Part shown: in pieces, positions 3,162 to 51,167 of the stretch
Position numbering within the stretch: the stretch's first letter is position 1
Layout of the letters: each line of letters begins with the position of its first letter
From: Escherichia coli
Lineage (GTDB): Bacteria; Pseudomonadota; Gammaproteobacteria; Enterobacterales; Enterobacteriaceae
NCBI RefSeq assembly: GCF_001677475.2
Contig: NZ_CP015229.1
Reading direction: 5' to 3' (one strand)
DNA: 64,000 nt
The notes under the pieces: model-generated
Seen by the model: only the letters and a program-made list of their open reading frames with translations
Databases searched by the model: none
What the model was told of the DNA's origin: nothing
Position numbers and translations under genes: made by a program

Positions 3162-3851
3162 TTAACCGTTAGTTAATTTTTCAAACTCTTCACACCCGGT
3201 ATCAAACCCTTCCATACAGCTCAGATTTAACCAGTGCAGCGCCTTTTGTTTGTTCTTCTCGATAAAACCTTCTTCACCGTTTAAGAACATCATTCCCGCC
3301 CAGTACTCGGAATAACCGGTTCGGGAAATTGCAGAGCTGCGTTTGAAATACCAGGTTGCCTTGTCATCGTCGGCCTTAATGCCCACGCCGTTGGCGTAAA
3401 TCAAACCAAGCAGCATTTGGGCATCGACGGCAGAGTCGTTCTCCAGATCTTCCGAGGCGTTTTCTAACAGCGAAATCGCCTTTGGATAATCCGGTTTACC
3501 CGCTTGAGTATTTACCAGAATATGCGCCAGCGTTACTTCACCTTCTTTACTGCCCGCTTGCGCCGCTTTCTCTGCAAGAACTTTTGCTTGTGGATAGTCC
3601 AGACTGACCGGATTGGTGATTTTGATCTGCGCCAACAGCGCGCAGGCATCAGCATCACCGCTGTCGGCGGCTTTCTGTGCCCAATATTCGGCTTTGCTCA
3701 AATCGCCGGAGCTAAACCAGCTGTCGGCAAGAAAATATTGTGCGCGTCGGTCCCCGGCCTCTGCTGCCTTTAAATACTGGCTGCCAGGCTCGGAGTCGTT
3801 CGCGTGGGCAAAGAATGTCAAAAACAACATCAATGCGATAATTTTTTTCAT
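3162..3851 (-). CDS. yjcO: Sel1-repeat (TPR-like) exported protein YjcO
   Basis: 229-aa ORF with N-terminal signal peptide and repeated Sel1-like A-x-Y/W-x-x-A-A-x-x-G motifs. Confidence 0.85.
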   Translation of the reverse strand: MKKIIALMLFLTFFAHANDSEPGSQYLKAAEAGDRRAQYFLADSWFSSGDLSKAEYWAQKAADSGDADACALLAQIKITNPVSLDYPQAKVLAEKAAQAGSKEGEVTLAHILVNTQAGKPDYPKAISLLENASEDLENDSAVDAQMLLGLIYANGVGIKADDDKATWYFKRSSAISRTGYSEYWAGMMFLNGEEGFIEKNKQKALHWLNLSCMEGFDTGCEEFEKLTNG

Positions 3852-40224: not shown

Positions 40225-41133
40225 TTAGCCGGGAAACGTCTGGCGGCGCTGTTGGCTAAGTTTGCGGTATTGTTGCGGTGACATGCCGACATATTTGCCG
40301 AACGTGCTGTAAAAACGGCTACTCGAACGAAAGCCTGCCGTCAGGGCAATATCGAGAATACTTTTATCGGTATCGCTCAGTAACGCGCGAACGTGGTTGA
40401 TGCGCATCGCGGTTATGTACTGTTTCATCGTCAATTGCATGACCCGCTGGAATATCCCCATTGCATAGTTGGCGTTAAGTTTGACGTGCTCAGCCACATC
40501 GTTGATGGTCAGCGCCTGATCATAGTTTTCGGCAATAAAGCCCAGCATCTGGCTAACATAAAATTGCGCATGGCGCGAGACGCTGTTTTTATGTGTGCGC
40601 GAGGTTTTATTGACCAGAATCGGTTCCCAGCCAGAGAGGCTAAATCGCTTGAGCATCAGGCCAATTTCATCAATGGCGAGCTGGCGAATTTGCTCGTTCG
40701 GACTGTTCAATTCCTGCTGCCAGCGGCGCACTTCAAACGGACTAAGTTGCTGTGTCGCCAGTGATTTGATCACCATACCGTGAGTGACGTGGTTAATCAG
40801 GTCTTTATCCAGCGGCCAGGAGAGAAACAGATGCATCGGCAGATTAAAAATCGCCATGCTCTGACAGGTTCCGGTATCTGTTAGTTGGTGCGGTGTACAG
40901 GCCCAGAACAGCGTGATATGACCCTGATTGATATTCACTTTTTCATTGTTGATCAGATATTCCACATCGCCATCGAAAGGCACATTCACTTCGACCTGAC
41001 CATGCCAGTGGCTGGTGGGCATGATATGCGGTGCGCGAAACTCAATCTCCATCCGCTGGTATTCCGAATACAGCGACAGCGGGCTGCGGGTCTGTTTTTC
41101 GTCACTGCTGCACATAAACGTATCTGTATTCAT
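40225..41133 (-). CDS. melR: AraC-family melibiose operon activator MelR
   Basis: 302-aa ORF; divergent from melA. Confidence 0.9.
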   Translation of the reverse strand: MNTDTFMCSSDEKQTRSPLSLYSEYQRMEIEFRAPHIMPTSHWHGQVEVNVPFDGDVEYLINNEKVNINQGHITLFWACTPHQLTDTGTCQSMAIFNLPMHLFLSWPLDKDLINHVTHGMVIKSLATQQLSPFEVRRWQQELNSPNEQIRQLAIDEIGLMLKRFSLSGWEPILVNKTSRTHKNSVSRHAQFYVSQMLGFIAENYDQALTINDVAEHVKLNANYAMGIFQRVMQLTMKQYITAMRINHVRALLSDTDKSILDIALTAGFRSSSRFYSTFGKYVGMSPQQYRKLSQQRRQTFPG

Positions 41134-41415: not shown

Positions 41416-42771
41416 ATGATGTCTGCACCCAAAATTACATTTATCGGCGCTGGTTCGACGATTTTCGTTAAAAATATTCTTGGTGATGTGTTCCATCGCG
41501 AGGCGCTGAAAACGGCGCATATTGCCCTGATGGACATTGACCCCACCCGCCTGGAAGAGTCGCATATTGTGGTGCGTAAGCTGATGGATTCAGCAGGGGC
41601 CAGCGGCAAAATCACCTGCCACACCCAACAGAAAGAAGCCTTACAGGATGCCGATTTTGTCGTGGTGGCATTTCAGATTGGCGGTTATGAACCTTGCACG
41701 GTGACTGATTTCGAGGTCTGTAAGCGGCATGGTCTGGAACAAACCATTGCCGATACGTTGGGGCCGGGCGGTATTATGCGCGCGCTACGTACCATTCCGC
41801 ATCTGTGGCAAATTTGCGAGGACATGACGGAAGTCTGCCCCGATGCCACCATGCTCAACTACGTTAACCCAATGGCGATGAATACCTGGGCGATGTATGC
41901 CCGCTATCCGCATATCAAACAGGTCGGGCTGTGCCATTCGGTGCAGGGAACGGCGGAAGAGCTGGCGCGTGATCTCAATATCGACCCGGCTACGCTGCGT
42001 TACCGTTGCGCAGGTATCAACCATATGGCGTTTTACCTGGAACTGGAGCGTAAAACCGCCGACGGCAGTTACGTGAATCTCTACCCGGAACTGCTGGCGG
42101 CTTATGAAGCAGGGCAGGCACCGAAGCCGAATATTCATGGCAATACTCGCTGCCAGAATATTGTGCGCTACGAAATGTTCAAAAAGCTGGGCTACTTCGT
42201 CACGGAATCGTCAGAACATTTTGCTGAGTACACGCCGTGGTTTATTAAGCCAGGTCGTGAGGATTTGATTGAGCGTTATAAAGTACCGCTGGATGAGTAC
42301 CCGAAACGCTGCGTCGAGCAGCTGGCGAACTGGCATAAAGAGCTGGAGGAGTATAAGAACGCCTCCCGGATTGATATTAAACCGTCACGGGAATATGCCA
42401 GCACAATCATGAACGCTATCTGGACTGGCGAGCCGAGTGTGATTTACGGCAACGTCCGTAACGATGGTTTGATTGATAACCTGCCACAAGGATGTTGCGT
42501 GGAAGTAGCCTGTCTGGTTGATGCTAATGGCATTCAGCCGACCAAAGTCGGTACGCTACCTTCGCATCTGGCCGCTCTGATGCAAACCAACATCAACGTA
42601 CAGACGCTGCTGACCGAAGCCATTCTTACGGAAAATCGCGACCGTGTTTACCACGCCGCAATGATGGACCCGCATACTGCCGCCGTGCTGGGCATTGACG
42701 AAATATATGCTCTTGTTGACGACCTGATTGCCGCCCACGGCGACTGGCTGCCAGGCTGGTTGCACCGTTAA
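41416..42771 (+). CDS. melA: Alpha-galactosidase (NAD/Mn-dependent, GH4)
   Basis: 451-aa ORF MMSAPKITFIGAGSTIF... with Rossmann GxGS motif. Confidence 0.93.
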   Translation: MMSAPKITFIGAGSTIFVKNILGDVFHREALKTAHIALMDIDPTRLEESHIVVRKLMDSAGASGKITCHTQQKEALQDADFVVVAFQIGGYEPCTVTDFEVCKRHGLEQTIADTLGPGGIMRALRTIPHLWQICEDMTEVCPDATMLNYVNPMAMNTWAMYARYPHIKQVGLCHSVQGTAEELARDLNIDPATLRYRCAGINHMAFYLELERKTADGSYVNLYPELLAAYEAGQAPKPNIHGNTRCQNIVRYEMFKKLGYFVTESSEHFAEYTPWFIKPGREDLIERYKVPLDEYPKRCVEQLANWHKELEEYKNASRIDIKPSREYASTIMNAIWTGEPSVIYGNVRNDGLIDNLPQGCCVEVACLVDANGIQPTKVGTLPSHLAALMQTNINVQTLLTEAILTENRDRVYHAAMMDPHTAAVLGIDEIYALVDDLIAAHGDWLPGWLHR

Positions 42772-45185: not shown

Positions 45186-46832
45186 TTACTTAGTGCAGTT
45201 CGCGCACTGTTTGTTGACGATTTGCTGGAAGAAGTCGTTACCTTTGTCATCGACCAGGATAAACGCCGGGAAATCTTCTACTTCGATTTTCCAGATAGCT
45301 TCCATACCCAGCTCCGGATAAGCGACGCATTCAAGATGCTTGATGCTCTGCTGCGCCAGTACCGCCGCCGGACCGCCGATACTACCGAGGTAGAAGCCGC
45401 CGTGTTTATGACACGCGTCGGTAACCTGCTGACTGCGGTTACCTTTCGCCAGCATGATCATGCTGCCGCCGTGGGATTGCAGCAGATCCACGTAGGAGTC
45501 CATACGACCTGCGGTGGTTGGGCCAAGTGAACCTGATGGATAACCGGCAGGGGTTTTCGCCGGACCCGCGTAGTAGATCGGGTGATCTTTGATGTACTGC
45601 GGCAGTTCTTTACCGGCGTCAATCAGCTCTTTCAGCTTGGCGTGTGCAATATCTCGACCCACGATAATGGTGCCGGTGAGCGACAAGCGGGTGGATACCG
45701 GGTATTGCGAAAGCTGGGCGAGGATCTCTTTCATCGGGCGGTTAAGGTCGACTTTCACCGCTTCGCCTTCACCGGCCTGACGCAGTTCTTGTGGAATGTA
45801 CTGGCCTGGATTGTGTTCCAGTTTTTCGATCCAGATACCTTCGCGGTTGATTTTCGCTTTAATGTTACGGTCAGCGGAGCAGGAGACGCCCATGCCTACC
45901 GGGCAGGATGCACCGTGACGCGGCAGACGGATAACGCGAATGTCGTGCGCGAAGTATTTACCACCAAACTGCGCGCCAAGACCGAGTTTCTGGGCCTCTT
46001 CCAGCAGTTCCTGTTCCAGCTGGACATCGCGGAACGCCTGACCATGTTCGTTCCCTTCCGTCGGCAGTTCATCATAATAGTGAGTGCTTGCTAACTTGAC
46101 GGTTTTCAGGTTGGTTTCCGCAGACGTACCGCCAATCACAAACGCGATATGGTACGGCGGGCAGGCTGCAGTACCGAGGGTACGCATTTTCTCGACGAGG
46201 AAGTTTTTCAGTTTGCCGGGCGTCAGCAGGGCTTTGGTTTCCTGGTAGAGATACGTTTTGTTGGCAGAGCCGCCGCCTTTAGCGACACAGAGGAATTTGT
46301 ACTCATCGCCATCTACCGCGTACAGGTCGATTTGCGCAGGCAGGTTCGTGCCGGTGTTGACCTCTTTATACATGTCCAGCGGCGCGTTCTGTGAATAGCG
46401 CAGGTTATCTTCGATATAGGTGTTATAGACGCCTTTCGACAGCGCTTCTTCATCACCGCCACCGGTCCACACGCGCTGACCTTTTTTACCGACGATGATT
46501 GCGGTGCCGGTATCCTGGCAGGTCGGCAGCACGCCTTTGGCGGCGATTTCGGAGTTTCTTAAGAATTGCAGCGCCACGTACTTGTCGTTTTCGCTGGCTT
46601 CTGGATCGTGAAGAATAGCCGCGACCTGTTTCTGGTGGGCCGGGCGGAGCATGAAAGAAGCGTCGTGAAAGGCTTGCTGCGCCAGCAGGGTCAGGGCTTC
46701 TGGTTCCACTTTCAGAATGGTTTCGCCGTCGAAGTCGGCAACGCTAACGTAATCGGAAGTGAGTAGATAGTATTCGGTATTGTCTTTCCCCATCGGGAAA
46801 GGTGCCTGGTAGATAAAGGGTTTGTTTGACAT
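45186..46832 (-). CDS. fumB: Class I (Fe-S) fumarate hydratase, anaerobic isozyme
   Basis: 548-aa [40 protein letters not shown]... Confidence 0.93.
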
Positions 46833-46909: not shown

Positions 46910-48250
46910 TTATAAGAACCCGTACATCGCGGCGAAGATCCAGCCGAAGACGCACGATACGCTCACACCAATCAACCCCGGCAGAATAAAGCTGTGGTTG
47001 ATGACGAAGCGACCGATGTGGGTGGTGCCGGAACGGTCAAACTGAATCGCTGCCAGATCGCTCGGATAAGTCGGCAGGATGTAATAACCGTAGCAAGCCG
47101 GTGCTGAAGCCACGATGTATGCCGGATCAACGCCGATAGCCAGCGCGACCGGAACAATCGCCGCCAGCGCCGCAGCCTGAGAGTTTACAAACTTGGAAAC
47201 CAGCAGCAGAACAATGGCATAGGCCCACGGATACTCTTTCACCATTTCACCCAGTACGCCCTGAATTTCAGACATATGGGCACCGAACATGGTTTCTGCC
47301 ATCCATGCGATACCGTACACCGCCACGATGGCGATCATACCGGAACGGAAGACTTCGTTTTTTGAGATAGACGCGGGATTGGTTTTGGTCAGGATAATAA
47401 TCAGCGCCCCGGTCAGCAGCATAAACATCTGAATAACCAGTACCATCGACAGCGGTTTGCCGCCGAAGGATGGACGCAGGTCCGAATCAGCACCAAGAAG
47501 TGCGACTACAGCGATTGCCCCGAGGAAGATCCACATTGCAAGCCAGTTGCTTTTCGGCAGTTTTTTATCCAGCAGCGTCGCGGTATCACCGTAAACATAC
47601 TCACGGTTTTCCGGTACGGAGATGAATTTCTGGAACTCTTCGTCTTTATCCAGATCTTTACCGCGGAACCAGCTGAAGATACCGATCGCCAGGATACCGA
47701 TTAACGTCGATGGAATGGTGATTGCCAGCAGGTCGAGGAACTCAAGATGGCGACCATCAAAGGTGACATTACCCAGCATTGCAACCAGAGACACGACCGC
47801 AACCGACACCGGACTGGCGATAATCCCCATCTGTGCACCGATAGAACTTGCCGCCATCGGGCGTTCCGGACGGATGTTGTTCTTAATGGCGACGTCGTAG
47901 ATGATCGGCAAAATGGTGTAAACCACATGACCCGTACCGCAAAGAATGGTCAGCGTACAGGTCACAAACGGCGCGACAATTGAGACATATTTCGGGTTGC
48001 GGCGCAGCAGCTTCTCGGCAATTTGCAGCATGACATCAAGACCGCCCGAAGCTTGCAAGGTCGCCGATGCCGCCACCACCGCAATGATAACCAGCATGAC
48101 ATCAACCGGTGGTTTACCTGGCTGAAGGTGGAAGACGAAGACCAGAATGACCAGACCGATACCGCCTAATAAACCCAGCGCGATACCACCCTTTCTGGCA
48201 CCATAAAACAGACATATCAGTATTATGATAAGTTGGATAGTAAATAACAT
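46910..48250 (-). CDS. dcuB: Anaerobic C4-dicarboxylate antiporter
   Basis: 446-aa polytopic [25 protein letters not shown]... Confidence 0.92.
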
Positions 48251-48819
48251 GTGTGAACCCTCGCGATAATCCTATTTAAATTTTTGCTGAATAGATCACA
48301 GTCACGTTCTGTTTTGTATGAACTGTTTTCAGAGCCTGACTAAATATCCGTTTGGTCGTTACCGGCTTTAGCAAATACCTCACAGTGAATATTGGCTGAT
48401 TAAAGCAGCGGCAAATTTATGCACTGTGATAAGCGGCTTTTTCAGAGAGAATGACTCTCTGGCGATGGGTTTATAGTTTGTACTGCGCAGATGTTAATGT
48501 TTTGTTTGCTTCTATCTTATTGATATTTATTGGTCTATTTTTTTTCTCAGGGCAGATGTCATTAGGTTTATAGATTAATCTGATCTACCCATTTGTGGGT
48601 AAAAATACACATAATGCGGGTGACATAATAGTTAATTAACTTTTGTTAGCGTTTTGAAATTAAAAACACCGTTCATCTGAAGAGATATTAATTTTTAACG
48701 ATGATAGAGGGATAATTATATTTGATCTGGCACAAGTTTTATTGATTAACGATGTAACTTGTGCCAGGGGTATTTTGCATTACGGTAATAATTATTACTT
48801 ACAGATAACCAGCGATCCG
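48251..48819 (-). promoter_or_regulatory. Long AT-rich dcuB upstream regulatory region
   Basis: 569-bp AT-rich untranslated spacer upstream of dcuB; known in E. coli to integrate DcuR, FNR, NarL and CRP control. Individual sites not resolved. Confidence 0.45.
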
Positions 48820-49539
48820 TTATTGGCAATATTGTTTCAGTAGTGAGTAGTGTTCTGCCTGAATACGGTAACGGTAAACCGGACGCCCCGTGACGCCATA
48901 ATGGATACTGGTGAACAAGATGTGGCAGTTGACCAGCCAGATAAGGTATTTACGGCAGGAAACACGCGAGATGTTAACCTCGTTAGCCAGCTCGTCGGTT
49001 GAAAACTCATAGTCCTGATGCGCGTCAATCCACTGGCACAGCGTGCGTAACGTCTGCGGCGTTAAGCCTTTTGGCAAGCGACGAGGATCCTGCTCGTTGG
49101 AGCTGCTGCCGTGGATTAGCTGATCAAGCTCGGCCTGGTCATAATACTGATGTTTTTCCAGCGCCATTTTCTTTTGCCGCCAGCCGGTGAGCGCCTCTTC
49201 AAAGCGGGAAGCCTGGAAGGGTTTGATCAGGTAATCCACGACACCGTAATGCAGCGAATCTTTAATGGTTGCCGCATCGGCTGCGGAGGAGATGACAATC
49301 ACATCACTTTTGCAACGCGCGTTATGCAGGACAGGCAGTAAATCGAGCCCGTTCTCTTTTTGCATATAGATATCGAGCAATATCAGGTCGATAGGCGTAT
49401 CGCTATTGAAGATAATCTCTTTGGCTTTCTCCAGCGTCGAGGCTGTTCCACAGCATTGAAAGCCTGGGATTTGTGCTACGTATCGGCGATTCAGCTCCGC
49501 GACCATTGCGTCGTCATCGATAATTAATACATTGATCAT
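48820..49539 (-). CDS. dcuR: Two-component response regulator DcuR (CitB family)
   Basis: 239-aa ORF MINVLIIDDDAMVAELNRRY...; overlaps dcuS by 4 bp. Confidence 0.92.
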   Translation of the reverse strand: MINVLIIDDDAMVAELNRRYVAQIPGFQCCGTASTLEKAKEIIFNSDTPIDLILLDIYMQKENGLDLLPVLHNARCKSDVIVISSAADAATIKDSLHYGVVDYLIKPFQASRFEEALTGWRQKKMALEKHQYYDQAELDQLIHGSSSNEQDPRRLPKGLTPQTLRTLCQWIDAHQDYEFSTDELANEVNISRVSCRKYLIWLVNCHILFTSIHYGVTGRPVYRYRIQAEHYSLLKQYCQ

Positions 49540-51167
49540 CTGTTCGACCTCTCCCCGTCCCAGGGTATCTGGACAAAAAATTGTGTGAAAATCCCGGGTT
49601 CCGATTCCACGGCGATGCTGCCGCCGAGATTTTCTACCTGTTGTTTGACAAGTGCTAAACCGACGCCTCGCTCGCTTCCTTTTGTCGAGACACCTTTGTC
49701 AAAAATGTGATCGATTTTGTCGGGTGCGATCCCCGGTCCATCATCGTTAACTTCACAGTGCAGCCAGCCGTGACGGTAGTGCAATGTTACGCTAATTTCG
49801 CCACCGGGTTCCGGCCCTAATGCTTCCAGCGCGTTTTCTATCAGATTTCCCAACGTGGTAATCAGCGTCGCGACCTGGTCCTCACTGCCGCTGTCTGGCA
49901 ACTGGCTTTCACTGTTTAAAATCAGCGTATGGCCTAAATCGGTCGCGCGGTTAATCTTGCTGATTAAAAAACCAGCGATAACCGGAGATTTGATCTTACC
50001 CAGCAGAGAGCCAATCTCTTCCTGATAGTTATTGGCTGTTTTGAGAATGTAATCTTCCAACTGCTTATAACTCTTCAGATGCAATAATCCGAGAATCACG
50101 TGCAATTTATTCATAAATTCGTGGGATCGTTCACGAAGTGCGTCAGCATAGTTGACCAGACCGTCGAGTCGCTGCATCAGTTTACGTACTTCAGTTTTGT
50201 CCCTGAAGGTTGAAATGGCACCGATGATAACGCCATTACTGCGCACCGGAACGGTGTTGATCAGTAATAGCCGGTCTTTAATCGTAATCTCTTCGTCGCG
50301 GCGCGGCGTACCGTCGCGTAACACTTCCGAGACATCTACTACCTGTGACCACGAGTGGCTTAGCGTCGACAGTTTCTCATCGTCCTGCGACTTACGGTAA
50401 TTCAGCAATTCTTGTGCGGCATCGTTGATCAGCGTGACTTCACCGCGATCGTCCACGGCAACGACGCCTTCTTTGATAGACTGCAACATGGCCTGGCGCT
50501 GCTCAAACAGCGTGGAGATTTCGTAGGGTTCCAGGCCAAAAAGAATTTTTTTCAGTACTTTAACCAGAATGCAGGTGCCAATCAGTCCGACCAGCATGCC
50601 AAATAATACCGACCAGATAATGCTCCAGCGACTGTCATTGATCTGTTGGGTCACGCGGCTTAACTCAAGGCCGATCGCCACCACGCCAATTTGTTTATGA
50701 TTTTCATCGTAGATGGGGGTAAATACGCGTAAAGCCTGCGCCAGAAAACCGCGATTGATAGCGACATTTTCTTCGCCATTCAGCGCTTTAAGGATGTCAT
50801 CACCTTTAAATGGCTGACCAATACGCTGGGCTTCAGGATGCGAGTAGCGAAGACTTTGCATATCGGTAACGACAATAAATAGCAGATCGTTGCGTTTGCG
50901 CACGGCTTCCGCGATGGCCTGGATGCCGCTCTCCTGCGGTTTTTTCTGCAAGCCCTGACGGATTTCCGGCGAGTCGGCGAGGGTTCGCGCCACTGCCAGT
51001 GCCTTGTTGGCTAGCCCGTCTCGCGTCATATCACTGATTTGCGAGAAGTAAATCAGATGCACCACCAATAGTACCGAGAACAGTACCGCGCTGACCATTA
51101 AGATCACAGTGGTACTCAATTTCATCGGACGTTTGCGTAACATGCGGTAGGGCAATGAATGTCTCAT
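49536..51167 (-). CDS. dcuS: C4-dicarboxylate sensor histidine kinase DcuS
   Basis: 543-aa ORF with two TM segments, periplasmic and cytoplasmic PAS domains, kinase core. Confidence 0.92.
   Translation of the reverse strand: MRHSLPYRMLRKRPMKLSTTVILMVSAVLFSVLLVVHLIYFSQISDMTRDGLANKALAVARTLADSPEIRQGLQKKPQESGIQAIAEAVRKRNDLLFIVVTDMQSLRYSHPEAQRIGQPFKGDDILKALNGEENVAINRGFLAQALRVFTPIYDENHKQIGVVAIGLELSRVTQQINDSRWSIIWSVLFGMLVGLIGTCILVKVLKKILFGLEPYEISTLFEQRQAMLQSIKEGVVAVDDRGEVTLINDAAQELLNYRKSQDDEKLSTLSHSWSQVVDVSEVLRDGTPRRDEEITIKDRLLLINTVPVRSNGVIIGAISTFRDKTEVRKLMQRLDGLVNYADALRERSHEFMNKLHVILGLLHLKSYKQLEDYILKTANNYQEEIGSLLGKIKSPVIAGFLISKINRATDLGHTLILNSESQLPDSGSEDQVATLITTLGNLIENALEALGPEPGGEISVTLHYRHGWLHCEVNDDGPGIAPDKIDHIFDKGVSTKGSERGVGLALVKQQVENLGGSIAVESEPGIFTQFFVQIPWDGERSNR

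Follow-up and report, generated by a model that had tools for sequence, protein, structure and literature searches.

The perfect inverted repeat in the spacer between dcuR and dcuB of Escherichia coli is a composite of two things rather than a single element. We favour, with moderate confidence, the reading that it consists of the known FNR operator of dcuB-fumB and a lineage-specific hairpin at the end of the dcuSR operon, which uses the operator as its 3' arm. The two parts of this reading differ in strength. The assignment of the proximal arm to the FNR operator is highly likely, as is a role of FNR in activation of dcuB-fumB. The proposal that the distal arm has an RNA-level role, as part of an operon-end hairpin of dcuSR, is tentative and carries less than even confidence.

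Inverted repeat downstream of dcuSR

The window, that is, the whole 64-kb stretch of DNA that was analysed, contains dcuS, dcuR, dcuB and fumB on the same strand (Table 1). The dcuR-dcuB spacer is 570 bp long. It shows 98-98.6% identity to E. coli chromosomes and was found in 5414 of 5426 complete genomes. Compared with K-12, the window has 11 differences across the spacer, three of which are inside the loop of the repeat. A repeat search recovered the arms CTGGCACAAGTT (proximal) and AACTTGTGCCAG (distal), which are complementary at 12 of 12 positions with 17 nt between them. The coordinates and the complementarity given in an earlier note on this DNA were reproduced exactly. The repeat starts 52 nt past the dcuR stop codon, close to the distance of about 55 bp given there.

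We found five loci in the window with perfect inverted repeats of 12 bp or more whose loops span 3-40 nt, versus 0.1 expected per 64 kb, as estimated from 200 first-order Markov simulations of the 64-kb window. Furthermore, a 12-nt complement to the FNR-site region did not arise in any of 2000 shuffles of the 78 nt upstream. The 12-bp repeat is unlikely to be a product of chance.

Table 1. Features of the dcuS-fumB region, in window coordinates
Feature	Position	Strand	Remarks
fumB	45186-46832	minus	ORF list, RefSeq name
dcuB coding sequence	46910-48250	minus	ORF list, RefSeq name
dcuB promoter core (inferred), TGTG + TATTTT	48596-48611	minus	-10 region 48602-48607; start near 48596
44-bp block, TGTTTTTAATTTCAAAACGCTAACAAAAGTTAATTAAsTATTAT	48625-48668	minus	near-invariant across genera; -29 to -72 from inferred start
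FNR operator of the dcuB-fumB promoter	48722-48735	plus TTGATCTGGCACAA, minus TTGTGCCAGATCAA	centre 132.5 bp upstream of transcription start
Proximal arm; 3' arm of the predicted hairpin on dcuR-sense RNA	48727-48738	minus	9 of 12 bases belong to the FNR operator
Loop, 17 nt, fast-evolving	48739-48755	minus	7 of 17 positions variable among 8 Escherichia lineages
Distal arm; 5' arm of the predicted hairpin on dcuR-sense RNA	48756-48767	minus	complements the FNR half-site; restricted to Escherichia and C. koseri
Block A, AT-rich, GTTATnTnnnnGTAAYAATTATTAnnRTAATGMAAAAT	48771-48810	minus	conserved in Escherichia, Citrobacter, Salmonella, Trabulsiella, Intestinirhabdus
dcuR, last gene of dcuSR, 239 aa	48820-49539	minus	ORF list, RefSeq name
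dcuS	49536-51167	minus	ORF list, RefSeq name

The proximal arm belongs to the FNR operator of dcuB-fumB

FNR operators are of the CRP/FNR family and have the consensus TTGAT-N4-ATCAA. The 14-mer TTGATCTGGCACAA shares 9 bp with the proximal arm and has a further 5 bp in the flank outside the arm, so that the arm corresponds to the promoter-distal half and the spacer of the operator. One half of the site, ATCAA, is perfect, whereas the TTGTG half is degenerate with respect to the consensus. The 12-bp repeat is larger than the published operator, since it adds a complementary copy that is located 17 nt off and outside the operator.

The same 14-mer is known from K-12. Myers et al. 2013 (PMC3688515) give TTGATCTGGCACAA in their Table S6 as a predicted FNR site at 4,347,240 adjoining dcuB, and it is located at an FNR ChIP-seq peak without overlapping nucleoid-protein signal. 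Table 1 of the same paper places dcuB-fumB in Category 1 (direct FNR activation) with one site at -132.5, and gives the centre of the FNR peak as 4,347,259. The ratio of expression in the fnr mutant to that in the wild type was approximately 0.03 for dcuB and 0.05 for fumB (Myers et al. 2013, PMC3688515). The site in the window is identical to the published dcuB-fumB site in all 14 positions and has the same placement relative to dcuR and dcuB. The peak centre corresponds to position 48741 of the window and the centre of the 14-mer to 48728.5, an offset that is within ChIP resolution. The coordinate mapping was checked against the distances from dcuB and dcuR of gut-adaptive mutations (Lourenco et al. 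2016).

We scored the region with a symmetrised FNR matrix made from the 62 other ChIP-bound sites of Table S6, with the dcuB site excluded. TTGATCTGGCACAA reached 11.7 bits, level with the weakest training site (11.72). It was the top FNR match in the spacer, where the next match had 3.4 bits, and the sole 14-mer at or above 11.7 bits in the 64-kb window.

Orthologous loci were fetched with DcuR as a query, and 29 of them had dcuB downstream (Escherichia, Citrobacter, Salmonella, Trabulsiella and Intestinirhabdus). Of 30 orthologous dcuR-dcuB spacers (Escherichia, Citrobacter, Salmonella and Trabulsiella), 29 have the pattern TTG(T/C)G-N4-ATCAA. In the first 150 nt past the dcuR stop codon, the only part of the repeat that was conserved across genera was the proximal arm with its flank, TTG(T/C)G-N4-ATCAAAT, a palindrome of the FNR type. 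The proximal arm is frozen across genera because it is part of the FNR operator. Conservation of both arms across Enterobacteriaceae, which the earlier note had put forward as a check of its idea, was not observed; the proximal arm alone is kept.

At -132.5, the site is unusually distant compared with class II FNR promoters (-41.5) and class I FNR promoters (-61.5 and further). Under anoxia, an FNR dimer binds the 14-mer and, from this position 132.5 bp upstream of the dcuB start that depends on DcuR, helps to activate dcuB-fumB. A class II arrangement, in which the site would be at -41.5 and transcription would start at about 48687, was also considered. This was rejected, as there is no conserved -10 element at a suitable distance, and the sigma-70 ChIP peak and adaptive promoter mutations indicate a start at about 48596 instead.

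Conserved blocks of the spacer and the dcuB promoter

From dcuR to dcuB, a multi-genus alignment shows first block A, then a variable spacer whose length is constant, and next the FNR site. These are followed by a short TTAWTAT block, the 44-bp block and TGTGTATTTTTA (48600-48611), which is invariant across genera. Block A is located just past the dcuR stop codon, and its distance to the FNR site is constant across genera. We infer that the 44-bp block is the DcuR-P site. For DcuR, a footprint is reported at 27 bp upstream of a new dcuB start that depends on DcuR, and a footprint length of 42-52 nt is also reported. The 44-bp block presumably suits both of these footprints. The repeat lies upstream of this block, at about -131 to -171.

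The dcuB start was placed at about 48596 because this is the position 132.5 bp from the centre of the FNR site; TATTTT is then at -11 to -6. An anaerobic sigma-70 ChIP peak near 4,347,120 (Myers et al. 2013, PMC3688515) agrees with this start. Gut-adaptive mutations at 4,347,105, 4,347,121 and 4,347,126 cluster at the promoter core of dcuB, and in the mouse-gut study an IS2 insertion at 4,347,105 raised anaerobic dcuB expression in the single clone assayed (Lourenco et al. 2016). The A to T change at 4,347,121 converts TATTTT to TATTAT.

The distal arm is restricted to Escherichia and Citrobacter koseri

The distal arm is placed in the variable, constant-length spacer between block A and the FNR site. 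Folding of 60-nt segments predicted the hairpin in every one of the eight Escherichia lineages sampled, which comprise E. coli, E. albertii, E. whittamii and cryptic clades, with energies of -18 to -21 kcal/mol and z-scores of -4.3 to -5.4. The hairpin was also predicted in C. koseri, at -13.9 kcal/mol. The remaining 19 spacers, from Citrobacter, Salmonella and Trabulsiella, retain the FNR site but gave no such prediction. Of 28 lineages in which the FNR site, the DcuR-type block and the -10 block are all kept, 19 have no distal arm. A metagenome scan with TTGTGCCAGATCAAATAT as a query returned 39 loci, about half of which were unrelated chance matches. The relevant copies added one more Escherichia-like lineage and further C. 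koseri-like sequences, in which the hairpin is kept. They contained a single new arm variant (locus L086); a difference in another locus, L084, is a probable sequencing error in a contig of 1.5x coverage.

Within Escherichia, none of the 12 positions of the distal arm is variable, and none of 16 when the adjoining ACAT is included. Variable columns make up 28.5% of the spacer among the eight lineages, with the loop between the arms varying more than any other stretch. Against this background, the binomial probability of 12 invariant sites is approximately 0.018. The proximal arm varies at one of 12 positions within Escherichia, a C to T change in E. albertii that results in a G.U pair. Polymorphisms within E. 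coli, among five sampled variants, fall in the loop, the 5' flank and block A, and none falls in the arms.

Two arm substitutions were seen, both of them C to T: one lies in the proximal arm of E. albertii and C. koseri, the other in the distal arm of the metagenome locus L086. Both give a wobble pair on the dcuR-sense RNA and an A.C mismatch on the antisense RNA. Two wobble-compatible transitions have a chance of roughly 1 in 4 without selection, and this is weak evidence. The earlier note had set lack of co-variation of the arms in related species beforehand as part of an outcome that would speak against it. We found compensatory two-sided changes in none of the 12 pairs; eight pairs never vary and two vary on one side (G.U and U.G). 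This argues against a two-arm functional unit. Shuffle controls for the covariation test were uninformative.

C. amalonaticus S646 has another 9-nt complement, GCACAAATT, to the same FNR sequence, located directly past the stop codon (p = 0.003 uncorrected, borderline once corrected for approximately 20 sequences). This complement could be explained by a mutational tendency as well as by repeated selection for pairing with the FNR site. A 7-nt complement to the FNR site in Salmonella diarizonae was not significant (p = 0.11).

Alternative explanations of the repeat

Four other explanations were weighed, and each was rated less likely than a known FNR operator combined with a lineage-specific operon-end hairpin. 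Two of them concern proteins that bind DNA. The earlier note had suggested that the repeat could be the operator of a dimeric regulator, and overall its interpretation was partly supported. A dimeric regulator, FNR, does act here according to published ChIP-seq, but its operator is the 14-bp site and not the 12+12 repeat. It is improbable that both arms are half-sites of one symmetric operator, 29 bp apart from centre to centre, for DcuR-P, NarL, a second FNR dimer or another protein. The symmetry is perfect, the arms have been called invariant in Escherichia (with the exception of the proximal position that varies in E. albertii), and the centre of the FNR peak falls between the arms, though its offset from the 14-mer is within ChIP resolution. 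However, outside Escherichia and C. koseri the distal arm is gone, the proximal arm alone being conserved, while the dcuB regulatory blocks persist, and the best 14-mer overlapping the distal arm, TTGTGCCAGGGGTA, has -8.4 bits on the FNR matrix. In addition, the TTGTG halves are oriented CACAA…TTGTG, the reverse of a CRP/FNR-type palindrome. Binding of DcuR or NarL at the repeat is unsupported: the conserved block that fits the DcuR footprint is located 60-100 bp further downstream, and the DcuR motif footprinted at LEE1, TTATCTCACATAATTTAT, is unlike the arms. We also regard it as quite unlikely that the distal arm is a separate DNA site for another protein and that its complementarity to the FNR site is incidental. 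Further copies of GTTAC/GTAAC are present in block A and in the spacer, the DcuR-type block has the motif in the form TAAC-N4-GTTA, and the distance from block A to the FNR site does not change from genus to genus. The stretch that is invariant in Escherichia, CTGGCACAAGTTACAT, overruns the stem by 4 nt (…GTTACAT), and AAG(G)TTAC is common to C. koseri, C. amalonaticus and Trabulsiella. To judge from these sequences, the overrun and the recurrent AAG(G)TTAC would also fit a DNA-binding motif. On the other hand, the CTGGCAC part, which makes up most of the stem, is not common to those genera, the motif is absent from the C. freundii complex and Salmonella, and no known matrix or footprint covers it. 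Inspection of the distal arm by eye led to the rejection of several candidates: TGGCAC of a sigma-54 promoter is present but there is no TTGC at the -12 position, TGTGC of a CRP site is present but its second half is absent, and a NarL heptamer, TACCCCT, lies immediately 5' of the arm but varies even inside Escherichia. No match to the IHF consensus was seen by eye at the distal arm.

The other two explanations concern the RNA end of dcuSR and the origin of the distal arm. The repeat has little chance of being a Rho-independent terminator of dcuSR, perhaps a bidirectional one. Like intrinsic terminators, it provides a stable stem-loop soon after the last stop codon of the operon. A terminator scan found no other terminator-like site between dcuR and the dcuB promoter, and GGGTATTTTG comes after the stem on the plus strand. 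However, the repeat fails two defining features of intrinsic terminators. The 15-nt tail on the minus strand, AUCAAAUAUAAUUAU, has a TransTermHP-style score of -2.04 and that on the plus strand -1.97, weaker than the best tails of three other short-loop perfect repeats (-3.18, -3.62 and -2.41), and neither strand has a U-tract. The loop of 17 nt exceeds the 3-8 nt of the consensus terminator scan, which did not call the site. Thus, the remarks of the earlier note that there is no clean T-run and that a terminator here would be atypical were borne out, and the hairpin is not a classical intrinsic terminator because a U-tract is absent. Moreover, the Term-seq tables of Adams 2021, which are thresholded lists from aerobic cultures, contain two 3' ends inside dcuS and none between 4,341,567 and 4,350,442, hence none at the hairpin, and TERMITe 2025 has no dcuR entry. 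An Rfam E-value search of 48000-49100 returned sub-threshold nonsense matches only (a miRNA and snoRNAs), and a search of five orthologous loci at the Rfam gathering thresholds found no family. The remaining explanation is that the distal arm is functionless, a neutral templated mutation (quasi-palindrome correction against the FNR site) that looks conserved as Escherichia is young. This is conceivable though rather unlikely. Compensatory covariation is absent, and most relatives with the same regulatory blocks are without the repeat, which indicates that it is dispensable for control of dcuB; the complement in S646 hints at a tendency to copy the FNR sequence. Against this stand the invariance of 12 of 12 distal-arm positions (16 of 16 with ACAT), set beside the neighbouring variable columns, and a loop that is the most variable stretch. 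The G.T mismatch at the DNA level in E. albertii is uncorrected, which argues against ongoing templated correction.

Predicted hairpin at the end of dcuSR and its possible role

In the preferred reading, a known FNR operator and an operon-end hairpin, the hairpin is a property of the dcuR-sense RNA. The second option of the earlier note, an RNA processing structure that separates dcuSR from dcuB, may therefore apply in some form at this end of the operon. The 41-mer RNA of this strand folds as a predicted hairpin of -16.8 kcal/mol, with a z-score of approximately -5 versus shuffled upstream sequence. Its stem has 12 bp including six G-C pairs. In K-12-type sequences the loop is approximately 11 nt with a 2-nt bulge; neither this loop nor that of the window is short (3-8 nt). 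The hairpin is the sole stable structure between the dcuR stop codon and the dcuB control region. An RNA-level role of the distal arm is favoured because the structure is on the correct strand, the arms are more constrained than the loop, and no other stable structure is located there.

The distal arm would have arisen by substitutions in the otherwise unconstrained sequence that separates the FNR site from the AT-rich block. This may date to an ancestor of Escherichia and C. koseri, or there may have been two independent events. Read-through transcripts of dcuSR would then form a 12-bp stem-loop of -17 kcal/mol, 52 nt past the stop codon, because the distal arm complements an FNR sequence that cannot move. 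In a crowded spacer, the cheapest way to a new hairpin would be to evolve a complement to a neighbouring sequence that is unchangeable. The operon-end hairpin might act as a barrier to 3' exonucleases, as a pause site, or as both, marking the 3' end of dcuSR after factor-dependent termination.

Dar and Sorek 2018 (PMC6061677) describe Rho-terminated transcripts that are trimmed by exonucleases and whose 3' ends are then defined and protected by stem-loops. Like these stem-loops, the predicted dcuSR hairpin is stable, free of a U-tract and located downstream of the operon on the sense strand. By this analogy, the dcuSR hairpin would most plausibly work in the same way. It also resembles hairpins at operon ends that share sequence with the control region of the following gene, in that its 3' arm is the site of a transcription factor of the downstream promoter. 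Full-text literature searches with the arm and FNR-site sequences returned unrelated primers only, and those for a dcuR terminator returned nothing relevant. To our knowledge, an overlap of an operon-end hairpin with an operator has not been described for dcuSR/dcuB. The FNR operator is already known, and the hairpin itself is without description in the searchable literature but is of a familiar kind. The remainder of the repeat probably behaves like an ordinary lineage-restricted operon-end stem-loop with a putative function.

Little changes, as the sole function of this sequence with experimental support, FNR binding for anaerobic activation of dcuB-fumB, is already published. What is added here is a warning against reading the two arms as one operator, and a map that sets out block A, the FNR site, the DcuR-type block and the -10 region as conserved elements of the dcuR-dcuB spacer.

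A further proposal is that the FNR operator is used twice: as DNA it would recruit FNR for dcuB, and as RNA it would serve as the 3' arm of the dcuSR hairpin. We consider this very improbable. If it were true, transcription of the sensor operon would be physically coupled to oxygen control of its target promoter; for example, FNR might be displaced by read-through from dcuSR, or, when bound, might stop read-through and fix the 3' end of dcuSR. The complement in S646 would then reflect recurrent selection for pairing with the FNR site.

Predicted hairpins around block A in other lineages

If the hairpin marks the 3' end of dcuSR, terminator turnover would have a small example here, with a new operon-end hairpin built through evolution of a complement to a neighbouring, immovable transcription-factor site. 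Such a case would be helpful for annotation, although it would not be a new kind of system. The new hairpin would replace the hairpin of other genera that encloses the AT-rich block. This replacement is modelled from single-sequence folds. RNAalifold found no consensus for an 'ancestral' hairpin of block A, because the clamp shifts register between lineages.

Single-sequence folds of the lineages that are without the repeat show another long hairpin, which encloses block A. For most of the C. freundii complex, its clamp is GGGATT/AATCCC and a T-rich run comes next; clamps of other kinds are seen in other lineages. No such clamp on block A is present in Escherichia and C. koseri. In one E. coli strain, IS1 is inserted in block A.

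Conserved block downstream of dcuR

Block A, which lies just past the dcuR stop codon, is kept in Escherichia, Citrobacter, Salmonella, Trabulsiella and Intestinirhabdus, and its distance to the FNR site (the published dcuB-fumB operator) is constant across the genera that carry it. Part of the DcuR-type block, the inferred DcuR-P site (GsTAACAA…TTA(A)TTA), is similar to block A, and block A starts like the footprinted DcuR site of LEE1 (TTATCT…). Block A could be a second DcuR site or a site for another protein. Alternatively, it could form the top of a 3'-UTR hairpin. We compared the first ~75 nt past the dcuR stop in retrieved loci of lineages that lack the perfect 12-bp inverted repeat at 48727-48767 (L011, L012, L015-L022 (C. 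freundii complex), L008, L024, L081, L009, L010). In these lineages, a long AT-rich hairpin surrounds block A, and its G+C clamp differs by lineage: most members of the C. freundii complex have GGGATT…AATCCC with a T-rich run after it, Citrobacter sp. R56 has CAGGCCTGG…CCAGGTCT, and C. amalonaticus has AATCTTAGCCTT…AAGGTTAAGGTT. RNAalifold did not find a consensus for the hairpin around block A, because the clamp shifts register. This hairpin is probably the dcuSR terminator of the lineages without the inverted repeat. In E. coli strain 3PT, an IS1 is inserted within block A.

In C. amalonaticus S646 (locus L007, positions 3233-3241), GCACAAATT directly follows the dcuR stop, and all 9 nt of it are complementary to AATTTGTGC, which belongs to the FNR site ~80 nt further downstream (shuffling gives p = 0.003 per sequence). 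It is a second complement to the same FNR operator, placed differently.

Motifs and repeats with their window coordinates
Feature	Position	Strand	Sequence or remark
Block A, ~40 bp, AT-rich	48771-48810	minus	GTTATnTnnnnGTAAYAATTATTAnnRTAATGMAAAAT; directly 3' of dcuR stop
Perfect TATAAT	48715-48720	minus	directly adjoins FNR site (ATCAAATATAAT)
Weak sigma-70-like match	48695-48722	plus	TTAACG-16-TATATT; directed into hairpin of the 48727-48767 repeat
12-bp inverted repeat, 92% complementary, 26 nt between arms	48380-48391 / 48418-48429		TCACAGTGAATA / TATGCACTGTGA
Perfect 18-bp inverted repeat, 20-nt loop	41283-41338		ATTCCCATAAACTCAGAT … ATCTGAGTTTATGGGAAT

Promoter-like matches and the dcuB start region

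A promoter using the perfect TATAAT would have FNR at about -20. Neither this TATAAT nor the plus-strand sigma-70-like match is conserved beyond Escherichia and C. amalonaticus. For dcuB, Lourenco et al. 2016 described gut-adaptive mutations, namely insertions of IS2 and an A to T substitution. These mutations (K-12 4,347,105-4,347,126) map to the conserved TGTGTATTTTTA and start region at window positions 48596-48611, the point mutation changing TATTTT to TATTAT, and none of them maps to the perfect 12-bp repeat between dcuR and dcuB.

Other inverted repeats and relation to sequenced genomes

The 92% complementary repeat falls within the inferred 346-nt dcuB leader. Its cores, TCACAGTG and CACTGTGA, are near-invariant in Escherichia, where E. 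albertii differs by a single A to G substitution. The repeat might form a hairpin in the leader RNA or consist of CRP-like half-sites. The perfect 18-bp repeat lies in the spacer that separates two divergent ORFs, one of 302 aa (minus, 40225-41133) and one of 451 aa (plus, 41416-42771). By position, we take this pair to be melR/melA, and therefore the repeat probably corresponds to the paired MelR sites already known there.

The window comes from an Escherichia or Shigella lineage that has no exact representative among 5426 complete E. coli genomes: none of these matched its dcuR-dcuB spacer at 100%, and the best match was 98.6%. DcuR encoded in the window is identical to DcuR of Escherichia sp. 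E1V33, MOD1-EC7003 and E. whittamii.
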